Shown here one piece after another: positions 4,201-22,823 of a DNA stretch of 64,000 bases (within the stretch, counting starts at the first letter, position 1; every line of letters starts with the position of its first letter). The notes beneath the pieces are model-generated. The model saw only the letters and a list, made by a program, of their open reading frames with translations, did not search any database and was not told the DNA's origin. The position numbers and the translations under genes were made by a program. This DNA is from Promethearchaeota archaeon (GTDB lineage: Archaea > Asgardarchaeota > Lokiarchaeia > Sigyniarchaeales > SOKP01), in contig JBHLNF010000002.1 in the NCBI GenBank assembly GCA_048937405.1, positions 416,001 through 480,000 of the forward strand, written 5' to 3'.

Positions 4201-5630
4201 AGATCCACATCAGAAATAATAATCTTTTTCAATAGATATTTTAAATAAAATAAATATTTAGTCCTAAATCCTAAAAATGATTTTTTAGTTCTTATAGCAC
4301 CAATGAATAATTTTTTATTTACCATATCCTTTATTGTAGGGAAAATATCTTCTTTTAATTTTAAAGGTTCTAAATGCTCTGTTTTATGTTTTTTGAAAAG
4401 TTCAGAAAGGGATATTATACTATTGTTATTCAATTTATTATAAAAATTTTTAAAGAATTCTTTCTTGCCATAACTGAAATTACTGATATAATTCTTGAAT
4501 TCAATCTCATTATCTAAAATCTGTAATTTAAAATTATAATTGAGATTAATGTATAAAATAAGTTCATCTATATATTCTACTAATCCAAAAGTCGACTTTA
4601 ATTGATTTATATCAACATACTTTTCTTTTTCAAGTTGTCTGAATAAAACCCTTTCAATTTCATCACTAAATTTTTTCCAAACGATAGATAAAAGAATTAT
4701 TAATTTTGAAGTTTCATTTAATATTTCAGAATTCCAATTCTCTGGATTCTTTAATATTTCTTTTAATTTTTGAGTAATAAAGGAATAAATTCCTGCAGGA
4801 TTATAATCCAATAACCATGAATATAATTCAAGGATATAAACTAACCAGAAAGTGATATCAACGTTATCATCCTGATTAAAACTGAAACCACCATTTTCTT
4901 TCTGAAGCTGTTGAAGTAATTGAAGTTCTTTATCTTTAACCTCCATATCCAAATCTAAATATTTAAGGCAAAGTAATCTAAAAATTAACGAGGAATCTTT
5001 TTTCTTTTCTCCCGTATATGTACGGAACTGCTCTCTATTTAAACGGACATCCACTCCAAGGATTGTAAATATTTCCATCACATAAAATAACAATTTTGAC
5101 GTAGAAATATTTCTACAAATTTCACAATCTTTGGCTTGGCAATGTATAAACTTATTCCCCTTTTTCAGTGATAAAATAAAATTTCTAATTTGTTCTTTTA
5201 CTTGAGTTCTTCCTTCGGATAACATGTATTGATTTAATAAACCTGCAGTTTTTAAACAGGACAGCGCAAAGAATGTAGAACAAATATCAGGATCATTATT
5301 AGAATGGGGAGTAGAAATAAATCCTATTTTATTATCCAGCTGAACTTCACAATTTTTAATAAAAGAAAAAATTTCATCCCTATTTTTCCTTTTTTCTAGT
5401 TTTAAATATTTCCGAAGCAATAGTAACCAAAAGACATTTTCAAGATTTAGATGCGATGTATTTATAAATTTTTGATTAAAATGTTCATAGAATTCAATTA
5501 TTTTATTATATTCACTATAATAAAAAATTAGAATATCTCTTCGTTTAATATTTATAAAAGATTTAAATGGTTCTTTTTTAAATTTTGTTATGTAAGGATA
5601 TGCAAATTTCTCTTCGTACGCATTGCTCAA
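1218..5630 (-). CDS. Large protein: N-terminal prenyltransferase-like alpha/alpha toroid, long coiled coils, PCI/winged-helix-like segments, C-terminal TM helices
   Basis: Toroid repeats IGFIS..PDICSTFFA and QKENGGFS..DITFW; extensive heptad-rich K/E/L/I regions; PCI-like segments (LKDMIDLSKMNAELN; LLFLISSGELEGKFD); two hydrophobic helices at the C-terminus. Confidence 0.6.
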   Translation of the reverse strand: MSNAYEEKFAYPYITKFKKEPFKSFINIKRRDILIFYYSEYNKIIEFYEHFNQKFINTSHLNLENVFWLLLLRKYLKLEKRKNRDEIFSFIKNCEVQLDNKIGFISTPHSNNDPDICSTFFALSCLKTAGLLNQYMLSEGRTQVKEQIRNFILSLKKGNKFIHCQAKDCEICRNISTSKLLFYVMEIFTILGVDVRLNREQFRTYTGEKKKDSSLIFRLLCLKYLDLDMEVKDKELQLLQQLQKENGGFSFNQDDNVDITFWLVYILELYSWLLDYNPAGIYSFITQKLKEILKNPENWNSEILNETSKLIILLSIVWKKFSDEIERVLFRQLEKEKYVDINQLKSTFGLVEYIDELILYINLNYNFKLQILDNEIEFKNYISNFSYGKKEFFKNFYNKLNNNSIISLSELFKKHKTEHLEPLKLKEDIFPTIKDMVNKKLFIGAIRTKKSFLGFRTKYLFYLKYLLKKIIISDVDLNTERLYEEKEKLDDIKNDIYNMTLKLKNISSQIREEIESYLVINETNYAKERLKFILRDALMEADFLNENIEGSFNEILKYINIQASLGSEIAQWKKEYSVLQKKLSEVESYLKGKIQEKEELRNLSSLLETLNEKIDVLEEDLIKKLDLFKKQFNEILEKKYDEVELNLIIQSLDQLSQNVRKYDHIIYGVSQQITVKEKKIVKKHKKIIENWIKIKEQFNTEFDFYIKGFQFFNINLQKIEDVSKQIKAEILEIGEKAKNKIKANDFQDAYNFTKREYDLLMKEKIAEIKEIQSIVKREIRKKQKLYLLYRHLQEILEELEAEVIELIANQVKTLKKFIAEERNKSKIEDFDNFVSQEISNLKSQLKIIKNNFDHSDNLKIDQINKEFDHIQSQFTKSKKLYLKKINECTKNIENFKEQSELSIIQWENFIESFNDDLSILKDEYINKVISNSVNIIAIEKKTNYIKLDDLKNEVKLSCKVLISRLKDMIDLSKMNAELNEDEKSILVYTDYYYLNKDLKNYVDNHLLKLNRERIGKILALYDSSIRNRTLNVNMLELQNRINELNIFDDFLPNKFNEKARDLKILQERTEFIETKKYFESILENDRIAISDIKSSLNLFNKMHNYLEKQFNNLNNEIREFSNKVFRRMENYDNYIKIQDIYETEKHLINENFKKVQNKVEEQIKSVLNATEDLNKLIPEIRELYVRSKNSYSNEFDNKVHKITDKITSLKNESFREQLIIIINNKKIHLSQLLGNLERKVEDNIEIKEFKKCNYLIQKRAKNIELEIKEVKKHIENTIKDFSKKSKNFLQISKFVLDDFNKFIEEYFEILNEKVKALERLILKSYIKMTIKAVANEYLTVGFLNNELKIKKQNIQDHLLFLISSGELEGKFDPRIAIYFENPEVLDELDETELEVIKSTNYKLNMMLRHLKNLASQYGSVIALFASIITITYYFYLFSGNNPVVIALPITLTILILIFYVLKKNKEQTIN

Positions 5631-6622: not shown

Positions 6623-8050
6623 TTATTTTTTGTCTTTTGGTAAATGGCCTATCTCTTCTCTAATAGATGGGGTTAAAAAGTCTTTTTCCGTAGGCTTATT
6701 TAATATCTCTAAAAGATTATATTCTGTGATCATTTGAAGGATTCCCAGAACTTTCATACCATGCTCGTACATATCGTTCGCATCGGACAAATTCCTCCAA
6801 CAAAATGGACACTCAGTTGTTAAAATATCCGCTCCAACAGCATTCGCTTCATCACATCGTAAACTTGCTGTTTTAAGTGAAAATTCAGGATATCCTGCCC
6901 TTACTCCACCTCCAGCTCCGCAACACATACTATCAATTTTTATTCTGTACATCTCTTTGAATACTAAACCTACATCCTCCTCAAGTTTTCTAAGAATGAT
7001 ACGTGGAACTTCATACCATGCTTCGATTGCTTTATCAATCGCTCGATGTTCTATTATAAGCTTCGTTGATTCTTTTATCATTTCTTGCTCCATATCGATA
7101 GCAAAATGTCTGCCTGTATGACAAGGATCATGATAAGTAACAACTTTTCCTTTCAATTCTTTGTTTGGTTTGAATTTGATTTTCTCTTGTTGCACTAATC
7201 TTGCAACAAGTTCAAATGCGTGTTGTGTTTTAAATGGAAGCTTCTCATCCTCACCCATCCATTTTGGATAATCGATAGTAAAAGTTCTATAACAACCTGC
7301 ACAACTAAAATAGACCATTTTGACATTCTTGAAAGCTTCGAGATTTTTTCTCATTAATTCCTGAGCGGTATCAACTGCCCCAATTCTAAAGAATGGACTT
7401 CCACAACATACTTCATCATCAACTAAGGTAAAATTCATCCCTAATTGCTCAAATAATTTAGCAGTTGCAATTGCTACTTCTACTTGACGATAACTAGCTG
7501 TACATCCAACGTAATAGGCAATTTTTGCATCCTTATTATCAATAAACTTTTCTAGTCCTGCATCCTTCGCCCATTTCATTCTTTCACTAGCAGCTCCACC
7601 ATATGGATTATTTCTTTCTTTGACTAATTTATCCACTACCTCATGTTTATCGATCATCGGTATACCAGCTTCTATACATGCTGCCCTCAATGATTCAATG
7701 ATATCAACAGTAGGAACCTTATTTTCACATTGCGCTGAGCATTGACCACATGTTATACAGGGTAAAAATACATCTCGCACTTCTTCACTAAATTCTAAAT
7801 CACCACTTAAAATCGAGCGAGCAATCCACATTTTACCGGCATTCCAGAAAGCTTCCCATCCATATTCTATTCCCGCAGGACATGCATCTACCATTCCTTC
7901 ATAAAGAACCGTTCCTTGCTTTCCTGCAAATTCTCCTATTCCCTCCCTATCAGGTTCATTCGAATAAGCAAATCTACATGCTTTACAATGAATACATTTA
8001 TAAACCTCTTTTTTTAATTCTTCTAATCTTTCCATTCCTGTTTTTGCCAT
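6623..8050 (-). CDS. Fe-S oxidoreductase, HdrD/GlpC-like (ferredoxin motifs plus two CCG domains)
   Basis: CxxCxxC motifs (CIHCKAC, CITCGQC..C), VCCG, YHDPCH, MCCGAGGG, ECPFC. SD-like GGAGGT lies upstream of the ATG. Confidence 0.9.
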   Translation of the reverse strand: MAKTGMERLEELKKEVYKCIHCKACRFAYSNEPDREGIGEFAGKQGTVLYEGMVDACPAGIEYGWEAFWNAGKMWIARSILSGDLEFSEEVRDVFLPCITCGQCSAQCENKVPTVDIIESLRAACIEAGIPMIDKHEVVDKLVKERNNPYGGAASERMKWAKDAGLEKFIDNKDAKIAYYVGCTASYRQVEVAIATAKLFEQLGMNFTLVDDEVCCGSPFFRIGAVDTAQELMRKNLEAFKNVKMVYFSCAGCYRTFTIDYPKWMGEDEKLPFKTQHAFELVARLVQQEKIKFKPNKELKGKVVTYHDPCHTGRHFAIDMEQEMIKESTKLIIEHRAIDKAIEAWYEVPRIILRKLEEDVGLVFKEMYRIKIDSMCCGAGGGVRAGYPEFSLKTASLRCDEANAVGADILTTECPFCWRNLSDANDMYEHGMKVLGILQMITEYNLLEILNKPTEKDFLTPSIREEIGHLPKDKK

Positions 8051-8071
8051 TTTTTTATCAACCTCCTTTCT

Positions 8072-9562
8072 TTATGGAAGAGCAAGTCTCCCTGGGTGCA
8101 TTATCATATTTGGATCAACAAGCTTTTTAAAAGCCCTTAGATATTTCCAATACATTCCTGCTTGATAATACGCTTGTATATGAATGTATGGGTCTGGTCT
8201 ATAATTTAACCAACCTTGTTTTAACGCGTATTCTGTAGTCTCTCTATTTAATTCTTGAACTCTTTCGAAATCTGACTGTTTAGTGGAGTCAAAACCAATT
8301 ATAGGCATACATATCGCTTGTCTGCAACGCTCAATACTAGCTACCCAAATTGTAGGGGGAAGACCATGTTTCTCCGCCGCTTTTATATACATATCGCAAA
8401 AGTGAGCGCATTCATTCCATGGTGTATACCATGTAATAAAGAGAAAACCAGCTTCCCATAAACTATATGAAATTGCTAGTTTATTTGGCTTTTTCATTCG
8501 ACTTGCTATTTGTTTAGGATGTAATTCTTGTTTTACAAGAGCATCAGGATCTTTTGCTCGCTTTTTAAAATCTTCTGCTTGTTTGTCGATAGTCTCAATT
8601 ACATGCTCCAATTCGCTTTTTTCTTGAGCCCAAATCTCCCAATTCATCCACCATGGTGCAACTCCAAGTTCCTTATAGAATTCATAATCATGTGGGACTT
8701 TATCTTTTGGCCAGCGAGTCATAACTAAAGGATAATTTCCTCCCTGAACCATTACAGTATGATGAGCAATTCCAAACTCTTTTTTACCAACTTCAAGAGT
8801 TAAGTCTTGCATATCATAAGGATTCGACATACACCAGACAACTACAGTTTTATGTTTTGGGTGGGGATAAATTTTCACAGCAGCTTTAGTAATAACACCC
8901 ATAGACCCTTGAGAACCCATTAAATAACTCCACATATCAGGACCTAAACCATATTTATAAAATGGTTTAGCAAAAGGAAGTGCCCAAGATCCAGTTCGTA
9001 CTACATCTCCATTAGGGAAAACAATTTCTCCACACATAAAATTATCTCCCTGTGGACCAACTGAAGACGTATATAAAGAGAATCCCCGATCAATTGCATC
9101 TCCCATAACTGTCGCTGCTGGAGGTGCACCATCAGGAATAGGGGGTGCCCAATCTGGGTGGTTTTTATTCATATAAGCCCAGAGTTCCCCATTAGTAACT
9201 CCCGGTTCTATAATACAATATCGATTTTCCTCATCGATTTCAATGATCCTTTTCATTCTTCCTAAATCAAGAACAACTCCACCAGGTCTTATTGTAGGGC
9301 ATGCAAATCCTCCAGATAACCCACCGGAGATAGGACTTACAGGGATCTTTTCAGCAGAACAATAAATCAATATTTTGCGTATCTCCTCGACATATTTCGG
9401 TCTAATAACGATATTAGGAATCTGTGACTCTAATCCCATAACTGATTTTGCCAAATAACCCGCAGTAATTGCCTTGTTGTTTGTAGCAAATTCTTTACCG
9501 ACAATACCAATCATAGCTTCTAAATCTTTTTCATCTGGTAATTTATAGCTCATATTTTCCAA
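8072..9562 (-). CDS. FAD-binding oxidoreductase, VAO/PCMH (GlcD-like) family
   Basis: VLDLGRMKRI, IEPGVT, GDAIDRG, GPD..LMGSQGSMGVITK and C-terminal DPNMIMHPG. Co-oriented with the CCG protein, 21 bp apart. Confidence 0.88.
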   Translation of the reverse strand: MENMSYKLPDEKDLEAMIGIVGKEFATNNKAITAGYLAKSVMGLESQIPNIVIRPKYVEEIRKILIYCSAEKIPVSPISGGLSGGFACPTIRPGGVVLDLGRMKRIIEIDEENRYCIIEPGVTNGELWAYMNKNHPDWAPPIPDGAPPAATVMGDAIDRGFSLYTSSVGPQGDNFMCGEIVFPNGDVVRTGSWALPFAKPFYKYGLGPDMWSYLMGSQGSMGVITKAAVKIYPHPKHKTVVVWCMSNPYDMQDLTLEVGKKEFGIAHHTVMVQGGNYPLVMTRWPKDKVPHDYEFYKELGVAPWWMNWEIWAQEKSELEHVIETIDKQAEDFKKRAKDPDALVKQELHPKQIASRMKKPNKLAISYSLWEAGFLFITWYTPWNECAHFCDMYIKAAEKHGLPPTIWVASIERCRQAICMPIIGFDSTKQSDFERVQELNRETTEYALKQGWLNYRPDPYIHIQAYYQAGMYWKYLRAFKKLVDPNMIMHPGRLALP

Positions 9563-9854: not shown

Positions 9855-10424
9855 TTATATTTCTTGAATTTCCTGATCTAATCCTATTTGGTTATATTCA
9901 CTATTAATATTAGAAAATGTCGAGAATTTTCTATGTTTATTATCATTTATAATGAATTTATGAAAAGTTTTATTTTGATCATCAATAAATTCTCTAAATT
10001 CTTCATAAATTTCTTTTAATGTCATTTTTCTATTATTTAGGGGGCCTTCTTGCTTGATACTTTTGTTTTCACTATTTTTTTCCTTATTTATAGGGACAAA
10101 TTTCACAATATCTCTATCATAAATTATTTGCTCAAATAGATCACGATCTTTATTATCAAATTGACTAAATGCTTTGACACCATTGCTTAAATTTTTTGTA
10201 CTTTCTTGGTTCAATTCCAAATCAACCTTTTGATATCCTCGAATTTGAAATTGATTGTCCATAAAAAATTGAAAGTGATGAGGGCAAATTAGACCTTTTT
10301 GGATTGAAATTGTAGTTAATCGAGAGTTTTTATTTATTTGTGATCTTGGTATACCAACAAGATCTCTGGTTTTACAGATTGGACAAATGACTTGAATCTT
10401 ATTTGTCTTTGTAATAATATTCAT
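9855..10424 (-). CDS. Zn-ribbon-like hypothetical protein (CPxC...CxHxF family)
   Basis: CPICKT...ICPHHFQFFMD..IRGYQKVD; paralogous N-terminus at 53551-54399. Confidence 0.6.
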   Translation of the reverse strand: MNIITKTNKIQVICPICKTRDLVGIPRSQINKNSRLTTISIQKGLICPHHFQFFMDNQFQIRGYQKVDLELNQESTKNLSNGVKAFSQFDNKDRDLFEQIIYDRDIVKFVPINKEKNSENKSIKQEGPLNNRKMTLKEIYEEFREFIDDQNKTFHKFIINDNKHRKFSTFSNINSEYNQIGLDQEIQEI

Positions 10425-10535: not shown

Positions 10536-11339
10536 TTATCTTCTTAAGAATATTTTCGATGAATACCTTATACCAATAAAGAGAAAGAATAGAGAAAAAA
10601 TTAGCGTTAAAGGCAATTGTCCTATTATAATGTAGGCGAAATTAGGTTCTGCTGAATAGAAATACAACGTAATGGTTACTCCTAAAAATATGAACGAATT
10701 TGTAAGGGCAATTTTCCAGTTTGGAGACAAAAATCCAAAAATTAAATTTGGAGGTAAAAACAGAATAACGATATTTGCTGTTGATAACAATATTAAAATT
10801 GGCATGAAAGTTGTGAATAATTGATCCGCGTTATAGAATCGGTTTAAATTAAAGTATTGAAAAATGAATAAAGTTGTATTTATACTCATAAAAATTAAAA
10901 AAAATGATAAAGGTCCAACGATTAACCATGATAATAGTGTCCTTATAATCGGTTTTTGCATTACTTTTCCTTTTAAATTATTATTAAATATTTCTTCCAT
11001 CTCCTCAGGAAAAATTAATTCTGGATTATAATCAGGAGAATATGAGTCAATAAAATCTTGCATCATATTTTTAAGAATTTTTGAAACTAATTCGTTATTT
11101 TCATTCACTCCTACAACAGCAGCCACGAGAAATCTTTCTTCTTCGTTAGGAACTAAAATTAGTTTATCATTCTCACCGAGATCAACATTTTTAACTACAC
11201 TTCCAAGAGCTTCTCTACTAAAATTAGCAATTGAGGAGAAGAATCCTATTAGAATATTTTCATCATATTTTTTTTCCATAAAATTTTTCGAATATAATAA
11301 AATTCCATTTTCATCTAAGAAATATACACTTTTTATCAT
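10536..11339 (-). CDS. Longin-like domain fused to multi-pass membrane domain
   Basis: The N-terminus MIKSVYFLDENGILLYSKNF..LIGFFSSIANFS is a typical longin beta-beta-alpha start; the C-terminal half has about 4 TM helices. Confidence 0.7.
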   Translation of the reverse strand: MIKSVYFLDENGILLYSKNFMEKKYDENILIGFFSSIANFSREALGSVVKNVDLGENDKLILVPNEEERFLVAAVVGVNENNELVSKILKNMMQDFIDSYSPDYNPELIFPEEMEEIFNNNLKGKVMQKPIIRTLLSWLIVGPLSFFLIFMSINTTLFIFQYFNLNRFYNADQLFTTFMPILILLSTANIVILFLPPNLIFGFLSPNWKIALTNSFIFLGVTITLYFYSAEPNFAYIIIGQLPLTLIFSLFFLFIGIRYSSKIFLRR

Positions 11340-11369
11340 ATTAATCTCTCAATTTATTAATTTTCAATT

Positions 11370-13115
11370 TTATTTATAATCTTGTTCAAAAAATTCTTTA
11401 TAATCCTCTAAAGATGCTTTAGATCTTTTAAAACTGAAAAGATATTTACCGAATAATTCTATTAGGCGAATTATCATCTTGTTTGGGTTATCTTTTAGAA
11501 ATATTTTATACTTTTCATTTTTTCTCTCTTCTTGAATTTTGGCTACTTCATCAAACTTATATAGTTTCTCAATTAATCTCTCATCCGGATTATTTAATTC
11601 TATGGTAATAATTTCACCTGATTGAGGCAATTCTTCAATTAATTTTTTGAATGTCCCAATTTTTGATTCTTTTTTACCAATGGTTAATATTTGATCACAA
11701 TTAGAAACAATTCCCTCTGGAGCATGAAAAATTAGAATTACATTAAATTTCTCTTTTATTTTTTCCATAGAATTATTGAATTTATCATATTCTAATCGAT
11801 CTAATATTTCAAAGGGAATAAAGAACATAATTATTGAAGGAAATTTTACCAAAGCTTTAGCAATTGAAAATAAAAGGAAATCTAAATGATTTAATTCTGA
11901 ACAACGCTTATTTTTCTTAAGTGATAATCCTGTAAGCTCTAAGGCATTTTTAATATACGATTTACCATGAATTAATCTCCTTGAAGGAGCTACGAATATT
12001 TCTCCAATTATCTCATCAATCCTAGGAACAAATCCCGCAGTTTTTAATATCAGTTGGAGTTTGGATTTTCGATTTTTCAGAATTCCTTTAATGTCAATTT
12101 TATATTTAATTGCTTTCTTGACTTTCATATTTAATATTTTTGATTCATGCGCCTGAGGTAATATTACTATTTTTTCTAAATCTTTTCTATTTAAAAATTG
12201 AACCTCTTTTCCAAAAATTTCAATATTCCCAAAAAAATCAGAAAAATTCCCAGCAATACTCCAAAAAAGATAAAATAAATCATATTTATGTTCTGTATCA
12301 GATAATAGTTCTTCATCATAAAGAATCCCTATTGATTTTCCTCTGTGAATCCTGAAAGAAACATTTTGTATTCCATTCTCTATAGAGACATTTTTCAATA
12401 TTAAGTGTTGAGAATTTGGTCCTAATCTATCTAATTTTAACCGTTTTTCGATTATATTACAAATTACCTCAATTATTTGATAAATGTGGGGGGGATTTAG
12501 TTCATTCCAATTTTTAATTATATCTTCTTTGATAAAATCTCTTTCACTTATAATCTTTGAAAGTGTTCTTGAAAAGGAAAATAATGGTATAAGAGGGTAT
12601 TTTTCAAAATTTATATGTAATTTAATCACAAAATAAGGAAAAGAAATTCTAAATTCTCTATTATAAGGATTACTATCAACCATATAATTTTCAAATCTCT
12701 CATCTAATAACTCAACTTCTCTATCAAGTAGCATTATATGATTTTGAAATTCCTTTCGAATGAGGTTCCTCATACGTTCGATGATTTTTTTAGGACTAAC
12801 TAGTCCATCCTCATCGAAATCAGGATCAACAATAATTTCATTAAAATCAAATTCATCTATAAGGGGTGTATAAATTTTTAATAAAGGTACTCCCTTGTCC
12901 TTTACATCCTGATTAGTAAAGAATAATACTTCGATAAAAGATTTTTTATAGATTAAATTTAAAATTGAAGCAATACCAAAAGTGTTTTCTCTATATGTCA
13001 TCCAAAAACGTCTAGAAAATCTGACAGCATCCAAAATTTTCAGTCTAAGACGCTCTAATTCAAGGTTTCTAGAGGGCTTAAAAAATTTAGATTTCTTCAA
13101 ATCCTTAGATTTCAT
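11370..13115 (-). CDS. RWD/UBC-like domain(s) fused to degenerate ABC ATPase
   Basis: VIKLHINFEKYPLIPLFSF...KNWNELNPPHIYQIIEVI is a UBC/RWD-like pattern. It is followed by an ABC-fold scaffold (NVSFRIHRGKSIGIL, ILPQ, CDQILTI) lacking Walker A GKS/T, LSGGQ and Walker B DE. Confidence 0.6.
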   Translation of the reverse strand: MKSKDLKKSKFFKPSRNLELERLRLKILDAVRFSRRFWMTYRENTFGIASILNLIYKKSFIEVLFFTNQDVKDKGVPLLKIYTPLIDEFDFNEIIVDPDFDEDGLVSPKKIIERMRNLIRKEFQNHIMLLDREVELLDERFENYMVDSNPYNREFRISFPYFVIKLHINFEKYPLIPLFSFSRTLSKIISERDFIKEDIIKNWNELNPPHIYQIIEVICNIIEKRLKLDRLGPNSQHLILKNVSIENGIQNVSFRIHRGKSIGILYDEELLSDTEHKYDLFYLFWSIAGNFSDFFGNIEIFGKEVQFLNRKDLEKIVILPQAHESKILNMKVKKAIKYKIDIKGILKNRKSKLQLILKTAGFVPRIDEIIGEIFVAPSRRLIHGKSYIKNALELTGLSLKKNKRCSELNHLDFLLFSIAKALVKFPSIIMFFIPFEILDRLEYDKFNNSMEKIKEKFNVILIFHAPEGIVSNCDQILTIGKKESKIGTFKKLIEELPQSGEIITIELNNPDERLIEKLYKFDEVAKIQEERKNEKYKIFLKDNPNKMIIRLIELFGKYLFSFKRSKASLEDYKEFFEQDYK

Positions 13116-16100
13116 TAACTTTTGGCACCTCCATTGCTTTATAACGAAAATATTGTTCCATTTTTGAATCTATTTGTTTTACTTCTTTAATTGATTCTTT
13201 TCCCATCTCTTCTTCTATTTTTTCAACCAACATATCGATATTTAAATTAGTGAAAATTGAATAATTTGTACCTACTTTATTTTCTAAGACTTTATCAATC
13301 CCTTCAATCCCTTCGAGTTTATTAATTACATTTTCTTTTATATTTGTAAATTCAACTTCAATCGATCTTCCCTTTCCAGGTAAATTAACTAAAAGTGATT
13401 TAGGCTGTCCAAAATCTATCATTCCACGCTTTCGACCAAAGATAGCAACTAGATTACAAAATCTAGACTCTTCAGGATAGTGGGTAATAACAACTAATGT
13501 TGTATTGAATTGCTCATTAATCTTAGTTAATACAAGCCATAAGTTTTCTCGTACAACAGGATCCAAACCGCTAGTTGGTTCATCTAAAATTAAAAACATC
13601 GGTGAATGCATTAGTCCTATTGCAATACTAACTCTTCTTTTTTGCCCACCAGAGAGATTTTTAACGTACTCATCTATTTTATCCTCAATTTCTAGGCTGC
13701 GTAAAATTCGCTTCGCTCGACTCATAATCTCTTTTTCTGTAAGACCATACTGGCTTCCAAAATATAATAAATTTTCAAACGTGGTAAAATTATGATAAAT
13801 TTTACCTAAATCTTGAGGAACATACCCATATATTGGTCTAATTCTTCTTGAAATTCTTCTATTCATATTCATTCCATAAATTTGACAAAATCCAGTAATT
13901 TTTCTCATACCTAATAAACCTTTAATAAAGGTTGATTTCCCTGCACCGCTCTCTCCTAAAATTCCTAAAATTTTTCCATGCTTTACATTCATAGAAACGG
14001 AATCAACTATTAATTTTCCTCCTGCAAAAATACTTAAATTTTCACAATTAATTGCGGGAAATTTTTTTAAATAGGATTCATTAAGTTTCCCTCCAAAACC
14101 AAATAATAATTTAATTCTTTGTGGTATAGAAAGCCGTTGATAGAGTTTAAACAATATAAAAAATCCAATACCCGCAGCTTCAATAAGCAGAATATATGTT
14201 AATAAAAGGTTCCAAGGTTTTGAATCAAAACTTTGATCATATTGCAATTCATCTACAATAACAATTGCATTAGCCATATTTCTTAAATCACCTCCAAATC
14301 CTGGATTATCACCCACTCCTCCTGTATTAAAACTAATACATTGAATATACCAATTTAAAGTAGTTTTTATATTTTCTGGCTGAAATCTGTAGTCATAAAG
14401 CCCTTTTGATCCAAAATAAGTAATCATAAAGTTGGATGGTAAGTCAAGATAAGCCCCAAAAGCGGGTAAAACTAAAAACGAGCCATCTGAAGTTTGTGAG
14501 TTCTTTAGAAACTCGATGGCGGCTATTTTAGCCATTGGCTCAGAATTTAATAAATCAGTGAAAATTTCCAATCCATAATAAGTTGAAATAACATCACTAT
14601 GGAAGCCTATAAATAAAGAAAATCCACCATCTGGATTTTGACATGATCTCATCCAATGAGTAAGATTAACATGATTGATATTATCTAAATCATTGATTAC
14701 TTCCAACGAATATAAAGCCCAATACGTGCTTTCCATAGTTGACATATTTGAATTAATTAAATATATCAGTATTTGATAAACTGCTCCATACATGTTTAAA
14801 ACTGCTTCTACATCCTGACCCACACTAAATCCACCATCTGGATTTTGAAGATCGACTAAATAATTTGTAATATTCCCAATCTCATCATCTTCAGGCCATT
14901 TATTTGTAAAAGGAAAAAGGATTTTATAAATATTTAATCCACAATAGGTAGCATATAAAGTGGCATTTTCACCAGGAGAGGATGAAAATCCACCATTATA
15001 AGGATTATAACATCTATCAACAAAATTTGTTATGTTTTTCAATATTTCTTCATTCATAATCTCTTTATTTATAAATTCAGTAAATATTTCAGGATTATAA
15101 TTATAAAGGGCTGAGATCCCGTTAAAATTTGCTTCAATTGTAGTGCTTCCAAATAATGAATTTTGTCCTTGAAAAAAATGAAGCCATTCATAATAATTAA
15201 GAGTTGCTTCTCTAATATCAGCAAGGTTACTTTCAGTTAAGGACTCTAATTTGAGACTATCAATTGACTTCATAGCAGCCCACCCTGATATAAAATCGGA
15301 ATTATCATTCGAAATTGGATTTGAACGAAAACCTCCATCTCCATTTGAACAATTAAGTATAAAAGAAAGAGTCTTTTGTTCATCAAATAGCAAAGGATTA
15401 TATAAACCTAATCTCCTTAATGATGATAAAGCATAATATGTCGATTGGACATCAGAAGGTCCACCTAAAATATTAGAAAAACCATAATCTATAACATTAT
15501 ATAGCGAATTAAAATAGGTATAAATAGCCGACAATTCTGCAGAAGAATAGGTCATATTCATTCCTAAAAATGCTTGAATGCCATAATAGGTTGATTCGGC
15601 TGTTGCTACACTTAAAGCATCATTTGTCAATTTATAACTTCCTACTAGCCATGTGGAATTAATATATTTTGAAATATTATCATTTCTAAGGATGAAATCA
15701 CCATTTAAAATATTAGCTAAATCAATAGCACATGAAGTAGATCTTAAATCAGTAATATTTAAAAAGGGAATTAACTTAAATCCCCCTTCTTTTTTGTTCA
15801 GTGAATTATTTAGATAATTTAAAATATTGTCTGTCTGATTTTGCTGAATTTTATTTAGCAAATATGATTGATTTGCAATCTCTAAAGTCTTTATTGCTTG
15901 ATATGTAGAAATCATATTTCCCAATCCACCTATATCTGAATATGAACCATCTATATTTTGTTTTTCAAAAATATAATCAAAGAATATATTTGGTTTATAA
16001 TCTTTTACATGTTTATTCGAAATATCATTTGGATTTACAAGATCTGAAGAATATAATTCAACAAACGTAAAATTTATTGAATCAACTGCTCTAAAATTTG

Positions 16101-16308
16101 AATCTAAAGTTGGTTCTATGAACAATCCATCATCATTTTGATGTGTCCATGTGAAAAAAACAGCATTGTCTTTAATGAATTGAACATCTTCATTTTTAAT
16201 ATATTCAATATAAGGAATATTAACTAGAATAATAGATATAATTGGAACACCTACTAGAATTCCCAAAACCAAGATATTTTTTAGCAATCGTTTTGTTTTG
16301 TGACCCAA
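13105..16308 (-). CDS. Extracellular prenyltransferase/squalene-cyclase-repeat domain + TM + ABC ATPase fusion
   Basis: N-terminal TM; repeated QNxDGGF/DGSF toroid motifs with many sequons; a second TM; intact NBD (GESGAGKS, YVPQ, LSGGQ, LILDEPT, ITH). Confidence 0.85.
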   Translation of the reverse strand: MGHKTKRLLKNILVLGILVGVPIISIILVNIPYIEYIKNEDVQFIKDNAVFFTWTHQNDDGLFIEPTLDSNFRAVDSINFTFVELYSSDLVNPNDISNKHVKDYKPNIFFDYIFEKQNIDGSYSDIGGLGNMISTYQAIKTLEIANQSYLLNKIQQNQTDNILNYLNNSLNKKEGGFKLIPFLNITDLRSTSCAIDLANILNGDFILRNDNISKYINSTWLVGSYKLTNDALSVATAESTYYGIQAFLGMNMTYSSAELSAIYTYFNSLYNVIDYGFSNILGGPSDVQSTYYALSSLRRLGLYNPLLFDEQKTLSFILNCSNGDGGFRSNPISNDNSDFISGWAAMKSIDSLKLESLTESNLADIREATLNYYEWLHFFQGQNSLFGSTTIEANFNGISALYNYNPEIFTEFINKEIMNEEILKNITNFVDRCYNPYNGGFSSSPGENATLYATYCGLNIYKILFPFTNKWPEDDEIGNITNYLVDLQNPDGGFSVGQDVEAVLNMYGAVYQILIYLINSNMSTMESTYWALYSLEVINDLDNINHVNLTHWMRSCQNPDGGFSLFIGFHSDVISTYYGLEIFTDLLNSEPMAKIAAIEFLKNSQTSDGSFLVLPAFGAYLDLPSNFMITYFGSKGLYDYRFQPENIKTTLNWYIQCISFNTGGVGDNPGFGGDLRNMANAIVIVDELQYDQSFDSKPWNLLLTYILLIEAAGIGFFILFKLYQRLSIPQRIKLLFGFGGKLNESYLKKFPAINCENLSIFAGGKLIVDSVSMNVKHGKILGILGESGAGKSTFIKGLLGMRKITGFCQIYGMNMNRRISRRIRPIYGYVPQDLGKIYHNFTTFENLLYFGSQYGLTEKEIMSRAKRILRSLEIEDKIDEYVKNLSGGQKRRVSIAIGLMHSPMFLILDEPTSGLDPVVRENLWLVLTKINEQFNTTLVVITHYPEESRFCNLVAIFGRKRGMIDFGQPKSLLVNLPGKGRSIEVEFTNIKENVINKLEGIEGIDKVLENKVGTNYSIFTNLNIDMLVEKIEEEMGKESIKEVKQIDSKMEQYFRYKAMEVPKVNEI

Positions 16309-16313
16309 ATCAA

Positions 16314-17315
16314 TTATTTTCTAATCACCTTTAAATCATTCGAACTAATTATTTTTTCTTCCTCTTGTAAAATTCTAATTTGAAAGTATCTTCTAAAAGT
16401 AGCGAGATCTTTACTCATTGAAGTTATGATAATATTATTATCTAACATATACTCGATTAATTTTGATAAATTTTCCTCATAATTTTCCATTAGAACCTCA
16501 ATTGCTTCATTTCCTACTCTTATTATTCTTCTTATAGACGGAAATTTCTCAATAAATGCAATTATTTTTTCATTTAGATTTTGAATTGTAAACCTTGCTA
16601 TTAATCCTTCACTTGGTAAGGAAGATATTAGGTTTTGAGAGGTATCAAACTCTAATAACCTTCCATCTCTTAAAATTGCTGCTTTATCACATATTAATGC
16701 AGCTTCTAAATCATGAGTAATTATAAACATCGTCGTATTTAATCTTTGGTTTAGTTTCTTTAAATAGCTAAGTATATCATAGCGTTTCGAGGCATCCACG
16801 CCAGTAGTAGGCTCGTCTAAGAACAAAACATCTGGATTATGAATTAAACCGATAGCCATTGACAATCGTTTCTTTTCTCCACCGCTCATTTTTTCAACTT
16901 TCTTTTTCCAAGTATCTTCTGGAATATCAAGGATTTTAAACAATTTTTTTGCTATTTCTTTTGCATTTTTTTTATTCATTCCATATGTAGAGGTAAAGAC
17001 CTCAACGTTTACCATTGGATCTAATTCGAAATATAAATTTAACATTTCAAGTTGTGGAACATATCCAATATTGCTGAGAATCTTTGAATGATTACTCTTT
17101 TTATCAGGAGATAAACCAGTAACTTTAACTTCTCCAGACCAATTTTTTTTTTCAATTTGACAGGTCATTACTCTGACTATGGTTGTCTTTCCTGCTCCTG
17201 AAATTCCAAATAAGCCTATAATTTCTCCTTTATCAACAGTAAAGCTAACGTCATGAACAACATGTTTTTCTCCAAATTTAACATTTAAATTTTTTACATC
17301 TACCATCCTTTTCAT
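16314..17315 (-). CDS. ABC transporter ATP-binding protein (ABC-2/DrrA type)
   Basis: GISGAGKT, YVPQ, MSGGE, LFLDEPT, ITHD. Confidence 0.95.
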   Translation of the reverse strand: MKRMVDVKNLNVKFGEKHVVHDVSFTVDKGEIIGLFGISGAGKTTIVRVMTCQIEKKNWSGEVKVTGLSPDKKSNHSKILSNIGYVPQLEMLNLYFELDPMVNVEVFTSTYGMNKKNAKEIAKKLFKILDIPEDTWKKKVEKMSGGEKKRLSMAIGLIHNPDVLFLDEPTTGVDASKRYDILSYLKKLNQRLNTTMFIITHDLEAALICDKAAILRDGRLLEFDTSQNLISSLPSEGLIARFTIQNLNEKIIAFIEKFPSIRRIIRVGNEAIEVLMENYEENLSKLIEYMLDNNIIITSMSKDLATFRRYFQIRILQEEEKIISSNDLKVIRK

Positions 17316-17336
17316 TGTTTCAAGAGAACTAATTGC

Positions 17337-18626
17337 TTACACCTCATATTTTCTCCTTTTAAATATTATAAATGATACCATTGTCAAGATAGAACTAATA
17401 GCTAATAACCAAAAGAAGTGTAATCCCAGAATTGATTGACCTTTTTGAATTATACCGCGAAGTAAGGGATCTCCATGAGATAGAGGCAAAATATATGCAA
17501 TAACTTGCAAATAGGGAGGCATACCTTCAATAGGAATAAAAATTCCACTTAAAAGAACGGCAACAAGAAAAACAGCAAGAAATAACTGATTTGCTTGAGT
17601 CTTTGTTTTGCTCATTGAGCTAATAAAAACTCCCATCGTCAATCCAGAAAAACCAATTATGAATAGAGCAAGAAATAAATCTATTAGAGTACCCGCTATA
17701 TATAATCCCATTGATAAACCACTGATTAGCAATAAAGTAACTTGAAATAATAATACTAGAGTATATGTAATATATTTAGATATTAAAATTTCTGATCTCT
17801 TTACTGGAGTGAGTAATAATCGCGCAATCGGTTTCTCTTGAACAATTACTAATATTGATAATACAAAAGCGATACCAAAAACCATAAATGAAAGGGCCAT
17901 TACAATACTAGAATTGAAATTATGACTATATCCTTCAGGAATAATAAATTCTTCAAATCCATGAAGTTCAAATTGGGGTGTAAGATTATTCTCATTTACA
18001 AATATCTTAATTGAATCATAAACGGCGTTAAGACTCTGTTGAATAAACTGAATTTCTGAGGCATCTGGAACACAATCAATCAATCCTGGTAAACCAAATT
18101 TAAGTAATTCAGTAAAATCGACAGGCAAAGATAGAATAATTGAGATCTCCCCAGATATTAGAGCGTTTCTGGCTGTTTCCATTGCATATATCTCTTCAGT
18201 TGCGTTATAAAATTGAACTAAATCAAGCATAACCGACTTATTTACAGCCTCTACATATGGTATGGTATAATTATCTAAATATGATTCTGTTAAATCATTT
18301 TGGTTAATAACTATATTAGAATCGTATGATATTAACATACAAGGAATTGATTGCGTTTCGGGAGGTGTATCTGTCATTGTAAACCCTAACATAACTATTA
18401 TTAAAGGAGGTAACACGATAGCAAGCAGGAGATTAAATTTATCAGTCCATAAAAGTCTAAATTCTTTTTTAACCTGTTTTAAGATTCTTAGAGCGTTATT
18501 TTTTGATTTTAAAATTTTTTCAATAAATTTATTAAAATCAGGTTTTAGATTGGATACTTTACTTTTTACCTTCTCAAAATTTGGCTTGATTTTAGAATAC
18601 TTCTCTTTAATCTTTTTTTTATCCAA
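17337..18626 (-). CDS. ABC-2 type permease with extracellular domain
   Basis: VKKEFRLL start, one TM plus loop plus 5 TM, RLLLTPV, LSGIFIPIEGMP..LPLSH. Confidence 0.9.
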   Translation of the reverse strand: MDKKKIKEKYSKIKPNFEKVKSKVSNLKPDFNKFIEKILKSKNNALRILKQVKKEFRLLWTDKFNLLLAIVLPPLIIVMLGFTMTDTPPETQSIPCMLISYDSNIVINQNDLTESYLDNYTIPYVEAVNKSVMLDLVQFYNATEEIYAMETARNALISGEISIILSLPVDFTELLKFGLPGLIDCVPDASEIQFIQQSLNAVYDSIKIFVNENNLTPQFELHGFEEFIIPEGYSHNFNSSIVMALSFMVFGIAFVLSILVIVQEKPIARLLLTPVKRSEILISKYITYTLVLLFQVTLLLISGLSMGLYIAGTLIDLFLALFIIGFSGLTMGVFISSMSKTKTQANQLFLAVFLVAVLLSGIFIPIEGMPPYLQVIAYILPLSHGDPLLRGIIQKGQSILGLHFFWLLAISSILTMVSFIIFKRRKYEV

Positions 18627-18657
18627 CCTTAAAGGTTTTTTTTTAATCTTAACTATA

Positions 18658-19812
18658 TTACACCTCTAATTTCTTAAACATGTAGATGAAATATGCTAAT
18701 GATGCATAAATTAAAGAGCTTAAATTAAGCCAAAATATACTAATTAAATTAGGAGGTAATCCTTTTAATGTTATTTCAGTTATCAATGGAACTGCATTTG
18801 ATAATGGAAGCATATTCATAAAAATTTGTATACCTCCTTCCGTATCACCTAAAGGAAGTATACTTCCCGAAAAAAGTATTATAATAATAAACATAATTAG
18901 ATACATTTGATTAGCACTTTGTTCTGTAGGGCTTAATGCAGAAATAAATAACCCAATACAGATTCCACTAAAACCGATCATTATAAGTACTAAAAAGAAA
19001 TAAAATAATGAACCCAAACTATACAATCCAAAAAATGCAGTTAAAATAAAAATCTCTGTGGATTGAAGTAGCATAATTGCAGAATTAGCAATTAATTTAC
19101 TTAAAATGATTTCTCTTTTAGCAGTTGGAGTTATAAGCATTCGAGGAAGTGGACCCTCGGAGACTATTGAAAGAGAAGTTAAGTTCATAGTTGTTCCAAG
19201 AATTATAATGGGTAGAATTAAAGGGATTGCATAATTTAAAATTGCTGATTCCCAAAAAGGGACATCAAATTCTAAATAAGGCACCATAATAGTAAAATTT
19301 GCCATCATATCTGTCTGTGCTCTAAATAATGCTATAGGTTCTTGAATTGCAACTTCAACTGCTGTTATTGCCGCGAGATCAGAAGCATCAATATGATATA
19401 TCAGAATTGGATTGGATTTATTCTCAACTAACTCTGAAAAATTACTTGGTAAAACAATAATTATATCTATATCTCCACTTCTTAAGAGTTCATAACAAGT
19501 CTGGTATGCATTTTCGTATTCATCTAAATTAGTAGCATTATAATAACCATGAAATCCCCATGATGAGGTACTATTTTGCATTATTGATATGAAAGTTTCA
19601 TCATATTTTGAAGAATTCGTAGGAAAGTCATCATATGTAGGCATATCATCGAGTGTGATAATAGCAGATGTAAAAAATTTTGTAAGACCCCCCCCAGTAG
19701 TTAAACCAAAAACTAAGATTAGTAATACAGGAATTATAAATATTAAAATTAATGTTCTTTTATCTGCTCTAATTCTACCAAATTCCTTTCGTATTAATCC
19801 GCCTAGATACAT
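18658..19812 (-). CDS. ABC-2 type permease with extracellular domain
   Basis: IRKEFGRIRAD, RMLITP, FSGSILP; same topology as its neighbour. Confidence 0.9.
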   Translation of the reverse strand: MYLGGLIRKEFGRIRADKRTLILIFIIPVLLILVFGLTTGGGLTKFFTSAIITLDDMPTYDDFPTNSSKYDETFISIMQNSTSSWGFHGYYNATNLDEYENAYQTCYELLRSGDIDIIIVLPSNFSELVENKSNPILIYHIDASDLAAITAVEVAIQEPIALFRAQTDMMANFTIMVPYLEFDVPFWESAILNYAIPLILPIIILGTTMNLTSLSIVSEGPLPRMLITPTAKREIILSKLIANSAIMLLQSTEIFILTAFFGLYSLGSLFYFFLVLIMIGFSGICIGLFISALSPTEQSANQMYLIMFIIIILFSGSILPLGDTEGGIQIFMNMLPLSNAVPLITEITLKGLPPNLISIFWLNLSSLIYASLAYFIYMFKKLEV

Positions 19813-20107
19813 TATATAGGGCTCTTAGGGACTAAATCAACTATGCTGTAATTTTAATTAATCAAATTAATATAGTAAATGATACTTTAAAAGAAAAATT
19901 GTTATTTATATTTAAAATTAGAAAGAATGTGGTCTAAAGATTTATCAAAAAAAAACTAATTCTTTCTAATATTATCTATTTGAAGGAGAAAAATCATTTT
20001 TCTAGTTTTCTTTTTCATTTCAAAATTATAATCTTAACCTTTAATTTCACTGGATAAATCATATAACATAACTATTTTTTATTTTAAATTATCGACTAAA
20101 TATTATT

Positions 20108-22223: not shown

Positions 22224-22823
22224 TCATATCAGTATATTATTTCTAAAATATCTTTTGCTGATGTTATAATATAAATAGAATACTAAGAGGTAATGAATTA
22301 GTATACAAAAGATTATTCCAAAACTTAGAAACATATAGCCAAGGTATAATCCCATTAAGAAAGGATATATCAAGTTTACTAATAAAAGTGTTCTATTTTT
22401 ATATGAAAACCATGCATGGAAATGATATAATGAAAAGATTAGGCTTGAAATAAAAATAACAGACAGATCATCTAAATTTAATGAATTTATCAAGATTCCA
22501 ATTAGATAATACCTAAAAATTAATTCTTCCATAATCATTGTTAATGGTAAAAATATCAATATGATTTTTCTATTATTTCCTTCAATTAAAGCATTTGTAA
22601 CATCATGTTTCCGCATCAATTCGATATTATCCTTATTGAAAATAAAAATTTCAATAAATTTTCCTATGGTTAGAAGAATAAGTAAACCAAAGAGTAAAAA
22701 TAAAATTATAAAAAGATTAAATTCTCTGATTACAAGATATCTAACATTAAAGCCAAAAAATATTGGAATAAACAATAATATAGATACAAGAGTAATAATT
22801 GTGTATTTATTAGAGTTTTCCAA
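22224..22823 (-). CDS. CPBP family intramembrane metalloprotease (Abi/Rce1-like)
   Basis: EELIFR, FSLYH and H motifs within TM helices. Confidence 0.85.
   Translation of the reverse strand: MENSNKYTIITLVSILLFIPIFFGFNVRYLVIREFNLFIILFLLFGLLILLTIGKFIEIFIFNKDNIELMRKHDVTNALIEGNNRKIILIFLPLTMIMEELIFRYYLIGILINSLNLDDLSVIFISSLIFSLYHFHAWFSYKNRTLLLVNLIYPFLMGLYLGYMFLSFGIIFCILIHYLLVFYLYYNISKRYFRNNILI

Follow-up and report, generated by a model that had tools for sequence, protein, structure and literature searches.

A conserved six-gene cluster of Lokiarchaeia encodes a putative ABC-2 pump with toroid, RWD-like and longin components

Analysis of a 64,000-nucleotide stretch from a Promethearchaeota archaeon (contig JBHLNF010000002.1 of assembly GCA_048937405.1, positions 416,001 to 480,000; in the following the window) reveals six co-oriented minus-strand open reading frames (ORFs) which fill positions 10536-19812. 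They are labelled here, in the order of transcription, P1, P2, N, T, D and L. What they appear to encode is an ordinary export pump of the ATP-binding cassette (ABC) type ABC-2 plus three undescribed parts: an ATPase tethered to a toroid (T), an RWD-like dead ATPase (D) and a membrane-anchored longin protein (L). The six genes behave as one unit. Our tentative reading, to which we assign a probability of about 45%, is that they represent one operon for a single membrane machine, a type V exporter of lipid-like cargo with a toroid acceptor and a module made of D and L.

Studying the cluster in relatives of the host reveals a stable arrangement. The six genes stand in the same order in 16 regions from relatives, at identities which drop to 23-40% in other families of the class, and a scan of one genome per species yielded 71 loci, nearly all of which show the order P1-P2-N-T-D-L. 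All 71 come from metagenome-assembled genomes of Promethearchaeota/Lokiarchaeia or Helarchaeota, or from bins mislabelled as such. Counting only loci with room for the neighbour, the succession D-L is seen in 58 of 60 and T-D in 51 of 54; those that deviate belong to Helarchaeales and have a divergent D. A gene order conserved to this extent is not a matter of chance. The preliminary description of this DNA, which had proposed one multi-subunit machine and had pointed to synteny as its check, is backed on this point, as the order is kept across Lokiarchaeia and is near-universal where the system exists.

The presence of the cluster varies strongly between genomes. In a phylum-wide sample of 251 genomes only two families, both within the class, yielded the full N-terminus of D: the window's own, with about 29 of 54 genomes, and one more. 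About 190 genomes belonging to 26 other families did not yield it. Within the genus of the window 15 of 36 genomes harbour a full-length D. Four genomes of the same genus, 90-100% complete, lack both D and T, and in three of these four the genes n475-n496-n189 directly abut a CoA-ligase-like gene and n176, with exactly six genes missing. Because the flanks abut where the six genes are missing, the boundaries of the cluster are 10536-19812 and the six genes are retained or lost as a block. The n475-n496-n189/CoA-ligase flanks are also present in several genera which carry the cluster; therefore repeated loss would be the simpler history. Two single-contig genomes of a sister family were queried with D as well: G044 (4.4 Mb) gave no match, and G055 (6.0 Mb) gave weak partial matches, at best of the ordinary nucleotide-binding domain (NBD) type with E 1.1e-5. 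The system may thus be missing from these most complete sister-family genomes, which matters for the choice of an experimental host.

The genes are tightly packed, with intergenic gaps of 31, 21, 5 and 30 bp and an overlap of 11 bp between T and D. The ORF listing of the window gives the same coordinates as the preliminary description, and the domain assignments made there for all six proteins hold in Pfam, profile and structure matches, with the limit that no sequence match ties domain 1 of D to RWD/UBC. The surplus of NBD-like subunits that it had remarked on is likewise real, two active and one dead for two permeases. A divergent AT-rich region of 295 bp lies upstream of P1 and likely represents the promoter region, because it is the sole long gap adjoining the cluster. 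At the other end, the T6 run after L is a possible candidate for an archaeal oligo-T terminator.

The core of the predicted pump consists of P1, P2 and N together with the ATPase end of T. P1 and P2 reach 90.6 and 82.6 bits against a Pfam cut-off of 31.6 bits for ABC2_membrane_3, the family ABC2_membrane was also matched, and transmembrane (TM) prediction gives P1 and likewise P2 a large outside loop after the first helix (TM1-TM2). The TTG start of P2 is uncertain, as alignments of its orthologues begin only at about residue 20-57. In NCBIfam, N matches the DrrA subfamily best (E 1.8e-56, 191.6 bits against a cut-off of 312.45); none of the exporter subfamilies DrrA, NodI, GldA and RbbA reaches its curated cut-off in NCBIfam, and those other than DrrA lie further below. 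In terms of solved structures N is closest to the NBDs of ABCA3, ABCA1, ABCA4 and ABCA7 (E 7e-40 to 1e-30), and P2 to an insect ABCH lipid exporter (9ju6/8z01, E 2e-11). This closeness is a type V family resemblance and does not tell what the cargo is. Walker A, signature and Walker B of N are intact in 44 of 44 orthologues by a strict pattern. For T, Walker A and signature are found in 57 of 57 orthologues, and Walker B (DEPT) in 57 of 57 by a looser pattern. Direct reading of the window shows the H-loop His in addition to Walker A, signature and Walker B in the ATPases of both N and T. As two permeases and two intact ATPases make a complete transporter, P1, P2, N and T very probably form a working ABC-2 pump, judging from these motifs and family matches.

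Pumps of the group DrrAB, NodIJ, GldAFG and YbhFSR/RbbA have permeases in the same Pfam families (ABC2_membrane, ABC2_membrane_3) and ATPases with a C-terminal domain, as in the cluster studied here. They differ from it in that every NCBIfam match of the cluster stays far under the curated cut-offs. None of them is known to contain an ATPase threaded through the membrane to an outside domain, a dead ATPase as a third one, or subunits of longin or RWD type. The ABCA proteins (ABCA1/3/4/7) and the arthropod ABCH proteins share with the cluster the type V fold, large outside domains and a regulatory domain after the ATPases. In these proteins, however, the outside domain is a permease loop without a toroid, and the pumps are single chains or homodimers.

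The protein T links an active ATPase to a large region that is predicted to lie outside the cell. By hydropathy T has two TM helices (residues 11-29 and 701-719); basic residues stand N-terminal of the first and after the second. Because the ATPase must be cytoplasmic and a single TM helix precedes it, the about 670 residues between the helices are placed outside. This region matches the Pfam family Prenyltrans in four stretches (126.5 bits, cut-off 26.5), its two halves align with each other (E 5e-7) and both contain DGGF-type repeats; it is probably a double toroid. One helix and about 30 linker residues connect it to the ATPase, and next to the membrane the ectodomain shows strong conservation (G664...R676, N677, P698, W699).

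The name of the repeat family suggests an enzyme, and we considered whether the ectodomain of T is a prenyltransferase. A match to RabGGTase beta (E 2.5e-13) is limited in its alignment to the repeat units. No His is conserved at 90% or above across 64 orthologues, which is an indirect test for a zinc site, made by conservation and not by superposition, and the CxEQ thioester motif as well as the DxDD and DCTAE cyclase motifs were all not found in the toroids. The prenyltransferase assignment was rejected for the lack of a conserved His, the repeats-only alignment and the predicted outside location. Since a conserved His, CxEQ and DxDD are all missing, the ectodomain is treated here as a binding or structural toroid. 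T thus shares the Prenyltrans repeat family with RabGGTase beta, FTase beta and the terpene cyclases. Unlike the prenyltransferase beta subunits its toroid is doubled, predicted extracellular and without conserved zinc-site His, and it differs from the terpene cyclases in the lack of DxDD. For an ABC ATPase threaded to an outside double toroid no described counterpart was found in the literature.

Two further observations concern proteins that resemble T in part. Two Helarchaeota loci (L096, L097) encode shorter T-like proteins of 626-636 amino acids (aa), which consist of ectodomain and ATPase and whose genes adjoin a single ABC-2 permease gene on the opposite strand; they suggest a wider family of ectodomain-tethered ABC ATPases. 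In the window itself, a 1470-aa protein (1218-5630, minus strand) has an N-terminal Prenyltrans toroid match (E 2.7e-9), and one orthologue of it also matches a PCI domain. This protein recurs in 23 related loci and is present in three of the four operon-less genomes of the same genus (it was not found in G006, 90% complete). As it persists without the operon it is independent of the pump.

The next protein, D, matched no Pfam family as a whole, and its 173 close homologues are all from Asgard archaea and without a named function. In the AlphaFold model (predicted local distance difference test, pLDDT, 84.8) residues 233-580 adopt the fold of an ABC NBD, with Z 21.3 to 3gfo (CbiO; root mean square deviation, rmsd, of 4.8 Å over 235 residues) and Z 20.6 to 4yer (3.0 Å over 259 residues) in VIA; a structure search with the whole model returned NBD matches throughout. 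Walker A is found in 0 of 66 orthologues, Walker B in 0 of 66, and a signature-like motif in only 8 of 66. Because Walker A and B are missing from all orthologues, D is by its sequence motifs a pseudo-ATPase. A profile of its NBD scores 74.6-103.8 bits on the NBD of T (median 84) and 32.6-71.2 bits on N (median 51), and the two ranges do not overlap. The higher scores on T suggest that D arose from the neighbouring T ATPase by duplication.

In front of the NBD, the N-terminal 232 residues of D form two small domains in the model, each with a helix-strands-helix arrangement. Domain 2 contains the invariant residues P174, P177 and W203 within YPxxP and W...PPH motifs, and its order of elements (helix, four strands, helices) fits RWD/UBC. 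The top direct family for this domain is Pfam RWD, in two of 16 members (E 6.7e-4). When a profile of residues 1-232 was compared with 1.84 billion representative proteins, 118 matches were obtained, 80 of which are the distant proteins with E <= 1e-3. Among these 80 we counted 19 UQ_con, 16 RWD, four BRE, three UBC_like and two FANCL UBC-like (FANCL_d1) proteins, with best E values of 4e-12 (UQ_con) and 1.6e-10 (RWD). No Cys is found among the invariant or near-invariant columns of residues 1-232, and for this reason no E2 chemistry is expected. Domain 2 is therefore, on profile and motif grounds, an RWD/UEV-type domain and not an active E2. YPxxP and the order of elements are the same as in the RWD/UEV/UBC-like domains of GCN2 (RWD), Vps23 (UEV), FANCL and BRE, and the lack of a catalytic Cys is a likeness to the non-catalytic domains of the E2 fold. 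In contrast to these proteins, D joins the domain to a dead ABC ATPase, a fusion for which no example was found in the literature or in Pfam annotation.

Domain 1 of D is family-specific in sequence: only orthologues were retrieved for it in the search of 1.84 billion proteins, and hhalign gives a probability of 0.1% for profile similarity between the two domains. The order of its secondary-structure elements, on which the comparison is based, is compatible with an RWD-like domain. Against PDB profiles the N-terminal part of D gave weak matches only, namely a UEV (E 0.25) and EF-hand proteins (E 1e-3, via a DxDxDG-like loop), and a feature search of residues 1-232 in the ESM Atlas gave only leads below the threshold (UFC1 clusters, 0.75-0.77).

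The loop just mentioned, DPDFDEDGLVSP, lies between the N-terminal domains (residues about 88-100; 12816-12854, minus strand) and resembles an EF-hand calcium loop. The PDB profile search matched it to secretagogin and calmodulin with E 1e-3 to 2. It is kept in the Loki-type orthologues of D and not in those of Helarchaeales, and its last loop position is Lys and not Glu/Asp. A further protein with D-type domains is encoded in the same genome outside the window (G000:C18:109400-111103, minus strand): it comprises 568 aa and at least two tandem RWD-like domains, and orthologues of 550-600 aa occur in many relatives, pump-less ones included.

The last protein, L, has 150 homologues, all from Asgard archaea and annotated as hypothetical. 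Its model (pLDDT 77.9) shows two strands, a helix, three strands and two helices followed by four membrane helices. In VIA the N-terminal part superimposes on the longin domain of VAMP7 with Z 13.5 and an rmsd of 2.3 Å over 110 residues, and it reaches Z 13.4 with AP-3 mu, 13.1 with Sec22 and 11.3 with SR-alpha SRX; Roadblock/MglB scores are lower (Z <= 10.1). In Foldseek, where longin domains likewise rank at the top, matches to AP sigma/mu, zeta-COP and TRAPP range from E 9e-5 to 5e-3. By its modelled fold L carries a true longin domain, and the even number of helices together with the basic C-terminus leads to the prediction that this domain is cytoplasmic. Fold and topology agree with VAMP7, Sec22, Ykt6, AP sigma/mu and SR-alpha SRX (Z 13.5-11, rmsd 2.3-3.3 Å, 104-122 residues). 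Unlike VAMP7, Sec22 and Ykt6, L has no SNARE motif and a four-helix anchor instead of one tail anchor: there is no SNARE-type coil between longin domain and membrane, and the first TM helix begins about five residues past the last longin helix. What further sets it apart from known longin proteins is its place in an ABC-pump operon, at a sequence identity to them of only 9-15%.

The question then is whether D and L belong together and to the pump. In other Asgard-type assemblies, proteins of about 250 aa (P0314, P0326, P0300) combine an L-type longin domain with a following D-type RWD-like domain; for P0314 hhalign gives probabilities of 96.7% (E 3.9e-10) and 96.8% (E 3.1e-10) for the L-type and the D-type part, respectively. 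Because such fusions exist elsewhere, a functional link between D and L is drawn, and they hint, in the manner of a Rosetta stone, that longin and RWD-like domains work together. An attempt to co-fold D and L ended with a score of 0.00 and the verdict 'no answer', which is evidence for neither side. At one locus (L026, one genome) L lies beside a short D-like ORF and no pump genes are nearby. A 255-aa ORF near a divergent D (L022) was considered as a candidate for L and rejected, as it is not an L homologue. In our estimate the odds lean slightly towards D and L being physically part of the pump.

In the machine that we favour, P1 and P2 would be driven by the two intact ATPases, N and the ATPase end of T, and a hydrophobic, lipid-like cargo would be pushed from the membrane to the outside. 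There the toroids of T would serve as outer acceptor or holder, one per pump. On the inner side D, a presumed degenerate copy of the T ATPase without ATP binding, would carry the non-catalytic interaction domain of UBC/RWD type, and D and L together could attach to the pump from the cytoplasm, as a module without enzymatic activity that serves regulation or docking. The assembly of all six proteins, the contact between D and L, the direction of transport and the cargo are what we infer here. An isoprenoid lipid or a polyprenyl-linked compound would be the obvious guess for a cargo in an archaeon; an isoprenoid or lipid cargo is in our view doubtful.

In layout, and by analogy only, such a machine would recall MlaFEDB and LptB2FGC. 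These systems combine an ABC core with a membrane-anchored outside acceptor (MlaD, LptC), and in MlaFEDB the small cytoplasmic non-enzymatic subunit MlaB sits on the ATPase. The cluster described here departs from them in that its presumed acceptor is part of an ATPase chain and in that an RWD-like pseudo-ATPase and a longin protein make up the cytoplasmic side; a relation to them in sequence or fold was not found, and none was looked for.

Several points weigh against a single lipid-exporting machine of six proteins. At two Helarchaeales loci (L093, L094) D is divergent and has no L beside it, and L-type longin-TM paralogues also exist at sites without a pump of this kind, so that D and L need not come as a pair. 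The system is dispensable, as about half of the closest relatives do without it. The cargo was guessed only from family resemblance and from what the toroid fold is called. Pumps of the DrrA-type ABC-2 group are exporters of drugs, peptides and glycans as well, and the similarity of T to prenyltransferases is confined to the repeats and lacks the conserved His of a zinc site.

Among the other explanations a mechanotransmitter survives best. In this case the cluster would not transport anything: ATP hydrolysis inside would move the toroids of T on a target at the surface (S-layer, glycan or partner protein) with P1 and P2 as stator, as in FtsEX or MacB/LolCDE. The short connection of one helix and linker between the ATPase and the ectodomain of T would be an unusually direct mechanical link, and the strong conservation of the juxtamembrane stretch fits it too. 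However, P1 and P2 belong to ABC-2/type V and do not have the type VII fold of the known mechanotransmitters, the nearest solved relatives are real lipid exporters, and the toroids are without a catalytic motif. We consider this explanation unlikely.

The cluster could also encode ordinary DrrAB-type self-protection or drug/peptide efflux, with toroid, RWD and longin parts as lineage-specific decorations of little weight. The best match of N to DrrA is in line with this, some sources annotate a multidrug ATPase, and a cassette that is found patchily, in about half of the relatives, would fit an accessory trait. What makes it improbable is that the three extra parts are kept throughout, even where identity falls to 23-37%, which points to selection on them; the DrrA match, like the other NCBIfam matches, is in addition far under its cut-off.

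Decidedly improbable, in our estimate, is an outside-in sensor, the more far-reaching half of what the preliminary description had proposed. The toroids would bind an external ligand, the ABC core would signal this to the inside, and the RWD-like D and the longin protein L would bring in small GTPases or ubiquitin-like machinery. In favour of it, longin and RWD/UBC-like folds serve protein docking, the RWD-like domain of D has relatives in other proteins that also contain RING, JAB and longin domains, and one lineage has a PAS histidine kinase and a response regulator directly after L. Yet no GTPase or ubiquitin-system gene was found inside the conserved cluster in any lineage examined, the outside neighbours vary by lineage and remain after loss of the cluster, and both ATPases are fully catalytic by motif, as expected of a working pump. 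Very improbable, finally, are two unrelated adjacent systems, namely an ABC-2 exporter of four genes (P1, P2, N and T) and a D-L pair with a function of its own, for which the L-type proteins without a pump, the L026 locus and the two deviating Helarchaeales loci would speak, since D and T overlap by 11 bp, stay adjacent (as do D and L) at only 23-45% identity, are lost together, and D appears to be derived from the T ATPase.

In the published work on Asgard archaea no description of the six-gene system was found, and the main text of a 2020 preprint on Asgard diversity does not mention ABC, RWD or prenyl. The authors of the preliminary description had not recognised the architecture from characterised systems, and we too found no described counterpart in the literature searched. 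Existing annotations of the proteins read 'hypothetical', 'prenyltransferase/squalene oxidase repeat-containing' and 'multidrug ATPase subunit'. Asgard genomes harbour hundreds of longin, roadblock and E2/RWD-like genes, which are seldom found in an informative context. One longin and one RWD-like protein locked in a conserved operon with an assayable machine offer a direct experimental handle on them. It is quite unlikely, on present grounds, that D and L are true pump subunits which, via their RWD-like and longin domains, couple a lipid-type exporter to other eukaryotic signature proteins of Asgard archaea, for example small GTPases or additional longin/RWD proteins. If they are, archaeal lipid export would be under a trafficking-type protein network, and longin and E2-fold domains would have a first defined biochemical job in Asgard archaea. 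A cargo of isoprenoid lipid, if true, would bear on archaeal membrane remodelling in the lineage closest to eukaryotes.

Table 1. Features of the six-gene cluster and its surroundings (window positions; positions with a locus prefix refer to loci of relatives)
Feature	Position	Strand	Basis
P1, ABC-2 permease, 384 aa	18658..19812	-	ORF; Pfam ABC2_membrane_3 E 1.4e-25; TM prediction
P2, ABC-2 permease, 429 aa	17337..18626	-	ORF; Pfam; closest solved structure insect ABCH
N, plain active ABC ATPase, 333 aa, with DrrA-type C-terminal domain	16314..17315	-	ABC_tran E 5.8e-25
T, TM helix, double prenyltransferase-like toroid, TM helix and active ABC ATPase, 1067 aa	13105..16308	-	Prenyltrans E 1.9e-36; ABC_tran E 6.2e-27
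T ectodomain, residues 30-700, two probable toroid halves with DGGF-type repeats	14209..16221	-	Pfam; half-versus-half alignment
T NBD, residues about 745-1067	13108..14076	-	Pfam; motifs
D, two small alpha/beta domains, then dead ABC ATPase fold, 581 aa	11370..13115	-	model, pLDDT 84.8
D domain 1, residues 16-105, RWD-like order of elements	12801..13070	-	secondary structure of model
D domain 2, residues 108-226, UBC/RWD superfamily	12438..12794	-	profile matches; YPxxP and W...PPH motifs
D pseudo-NBD, residues 233-581, with C-terminal regulatory-type domain	11373..12419	-	VIA structure match
L, longin domain and four TM helices, 267 aa	10536..11339	-	model, pLDDT 77.9
L longin domain, residues 1-125, predicted cytoplasmic	10965..11339	-	model topology; VIA; Foldseek
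L membrane domain, residues 130-263, four predicted helices	10551..10952	-	model; TM prediction
Divergent AT-rich intergenic region, 295 bp, P1 to CoA-ligase-like gene	19813..20107	.	sequence
T6 run directly after L stop codon	10529..10535	-	sequence
Histidine kinase/response regulator inserted after L in relatives, examples	L047:12693-14942 and L046:8217-8600

Beyond the six genes the neighbours differ between lineages. The zinc-ribbon protein n189 (9855-10424, minus strand; P0483, 189 aa) has an N-terminal CxxC...CxHH zinc-ribbon-like motif, and in most loci of the family its gene borders the operon, on the L side or on the P1 side. It was considered as a seventh operon gene, as it is syntenic, and rejected, since it stays where the six genes are missing.

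A GlcD-like FAD protein of 496 aa and a CCG/4Fe-4S protein of 475 aa (best matches TfrB, LdhH and GlpC) are encoded at 6623-9562 on the minus strand and follow the operon in many loci. A functional linkage of the cluster to this pair, to the CoA ligase or to the 1470-aa toroid protein was rejected, as all of them stay without the cluster. In a more distant lineage a GlpD/GlpA-like glycerol-3-phosphate dehydrogenase stands directly after L (L088:9344-11035). The GlcD/GlpC-like and GlpD/GlpA-like neighbours may be a coincidence or may give a weak lead to glycerol-phosphate/lipid metabolism.

In one sub-lineage, about 19 loci carry an insertion directly after L which encodes a PAS-PAS-PAS histidine kinase of 749 aa and a single-domain response regulator of 127 aa (Table 1). 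Finally, a 199-aa protein of the Rce1-like CAAX prenyl endopeptidase (CPBP) family (E 6.6e-13) is encoded at 22224-22823 on the minus strand, 2.4 kb upstream of the operon.

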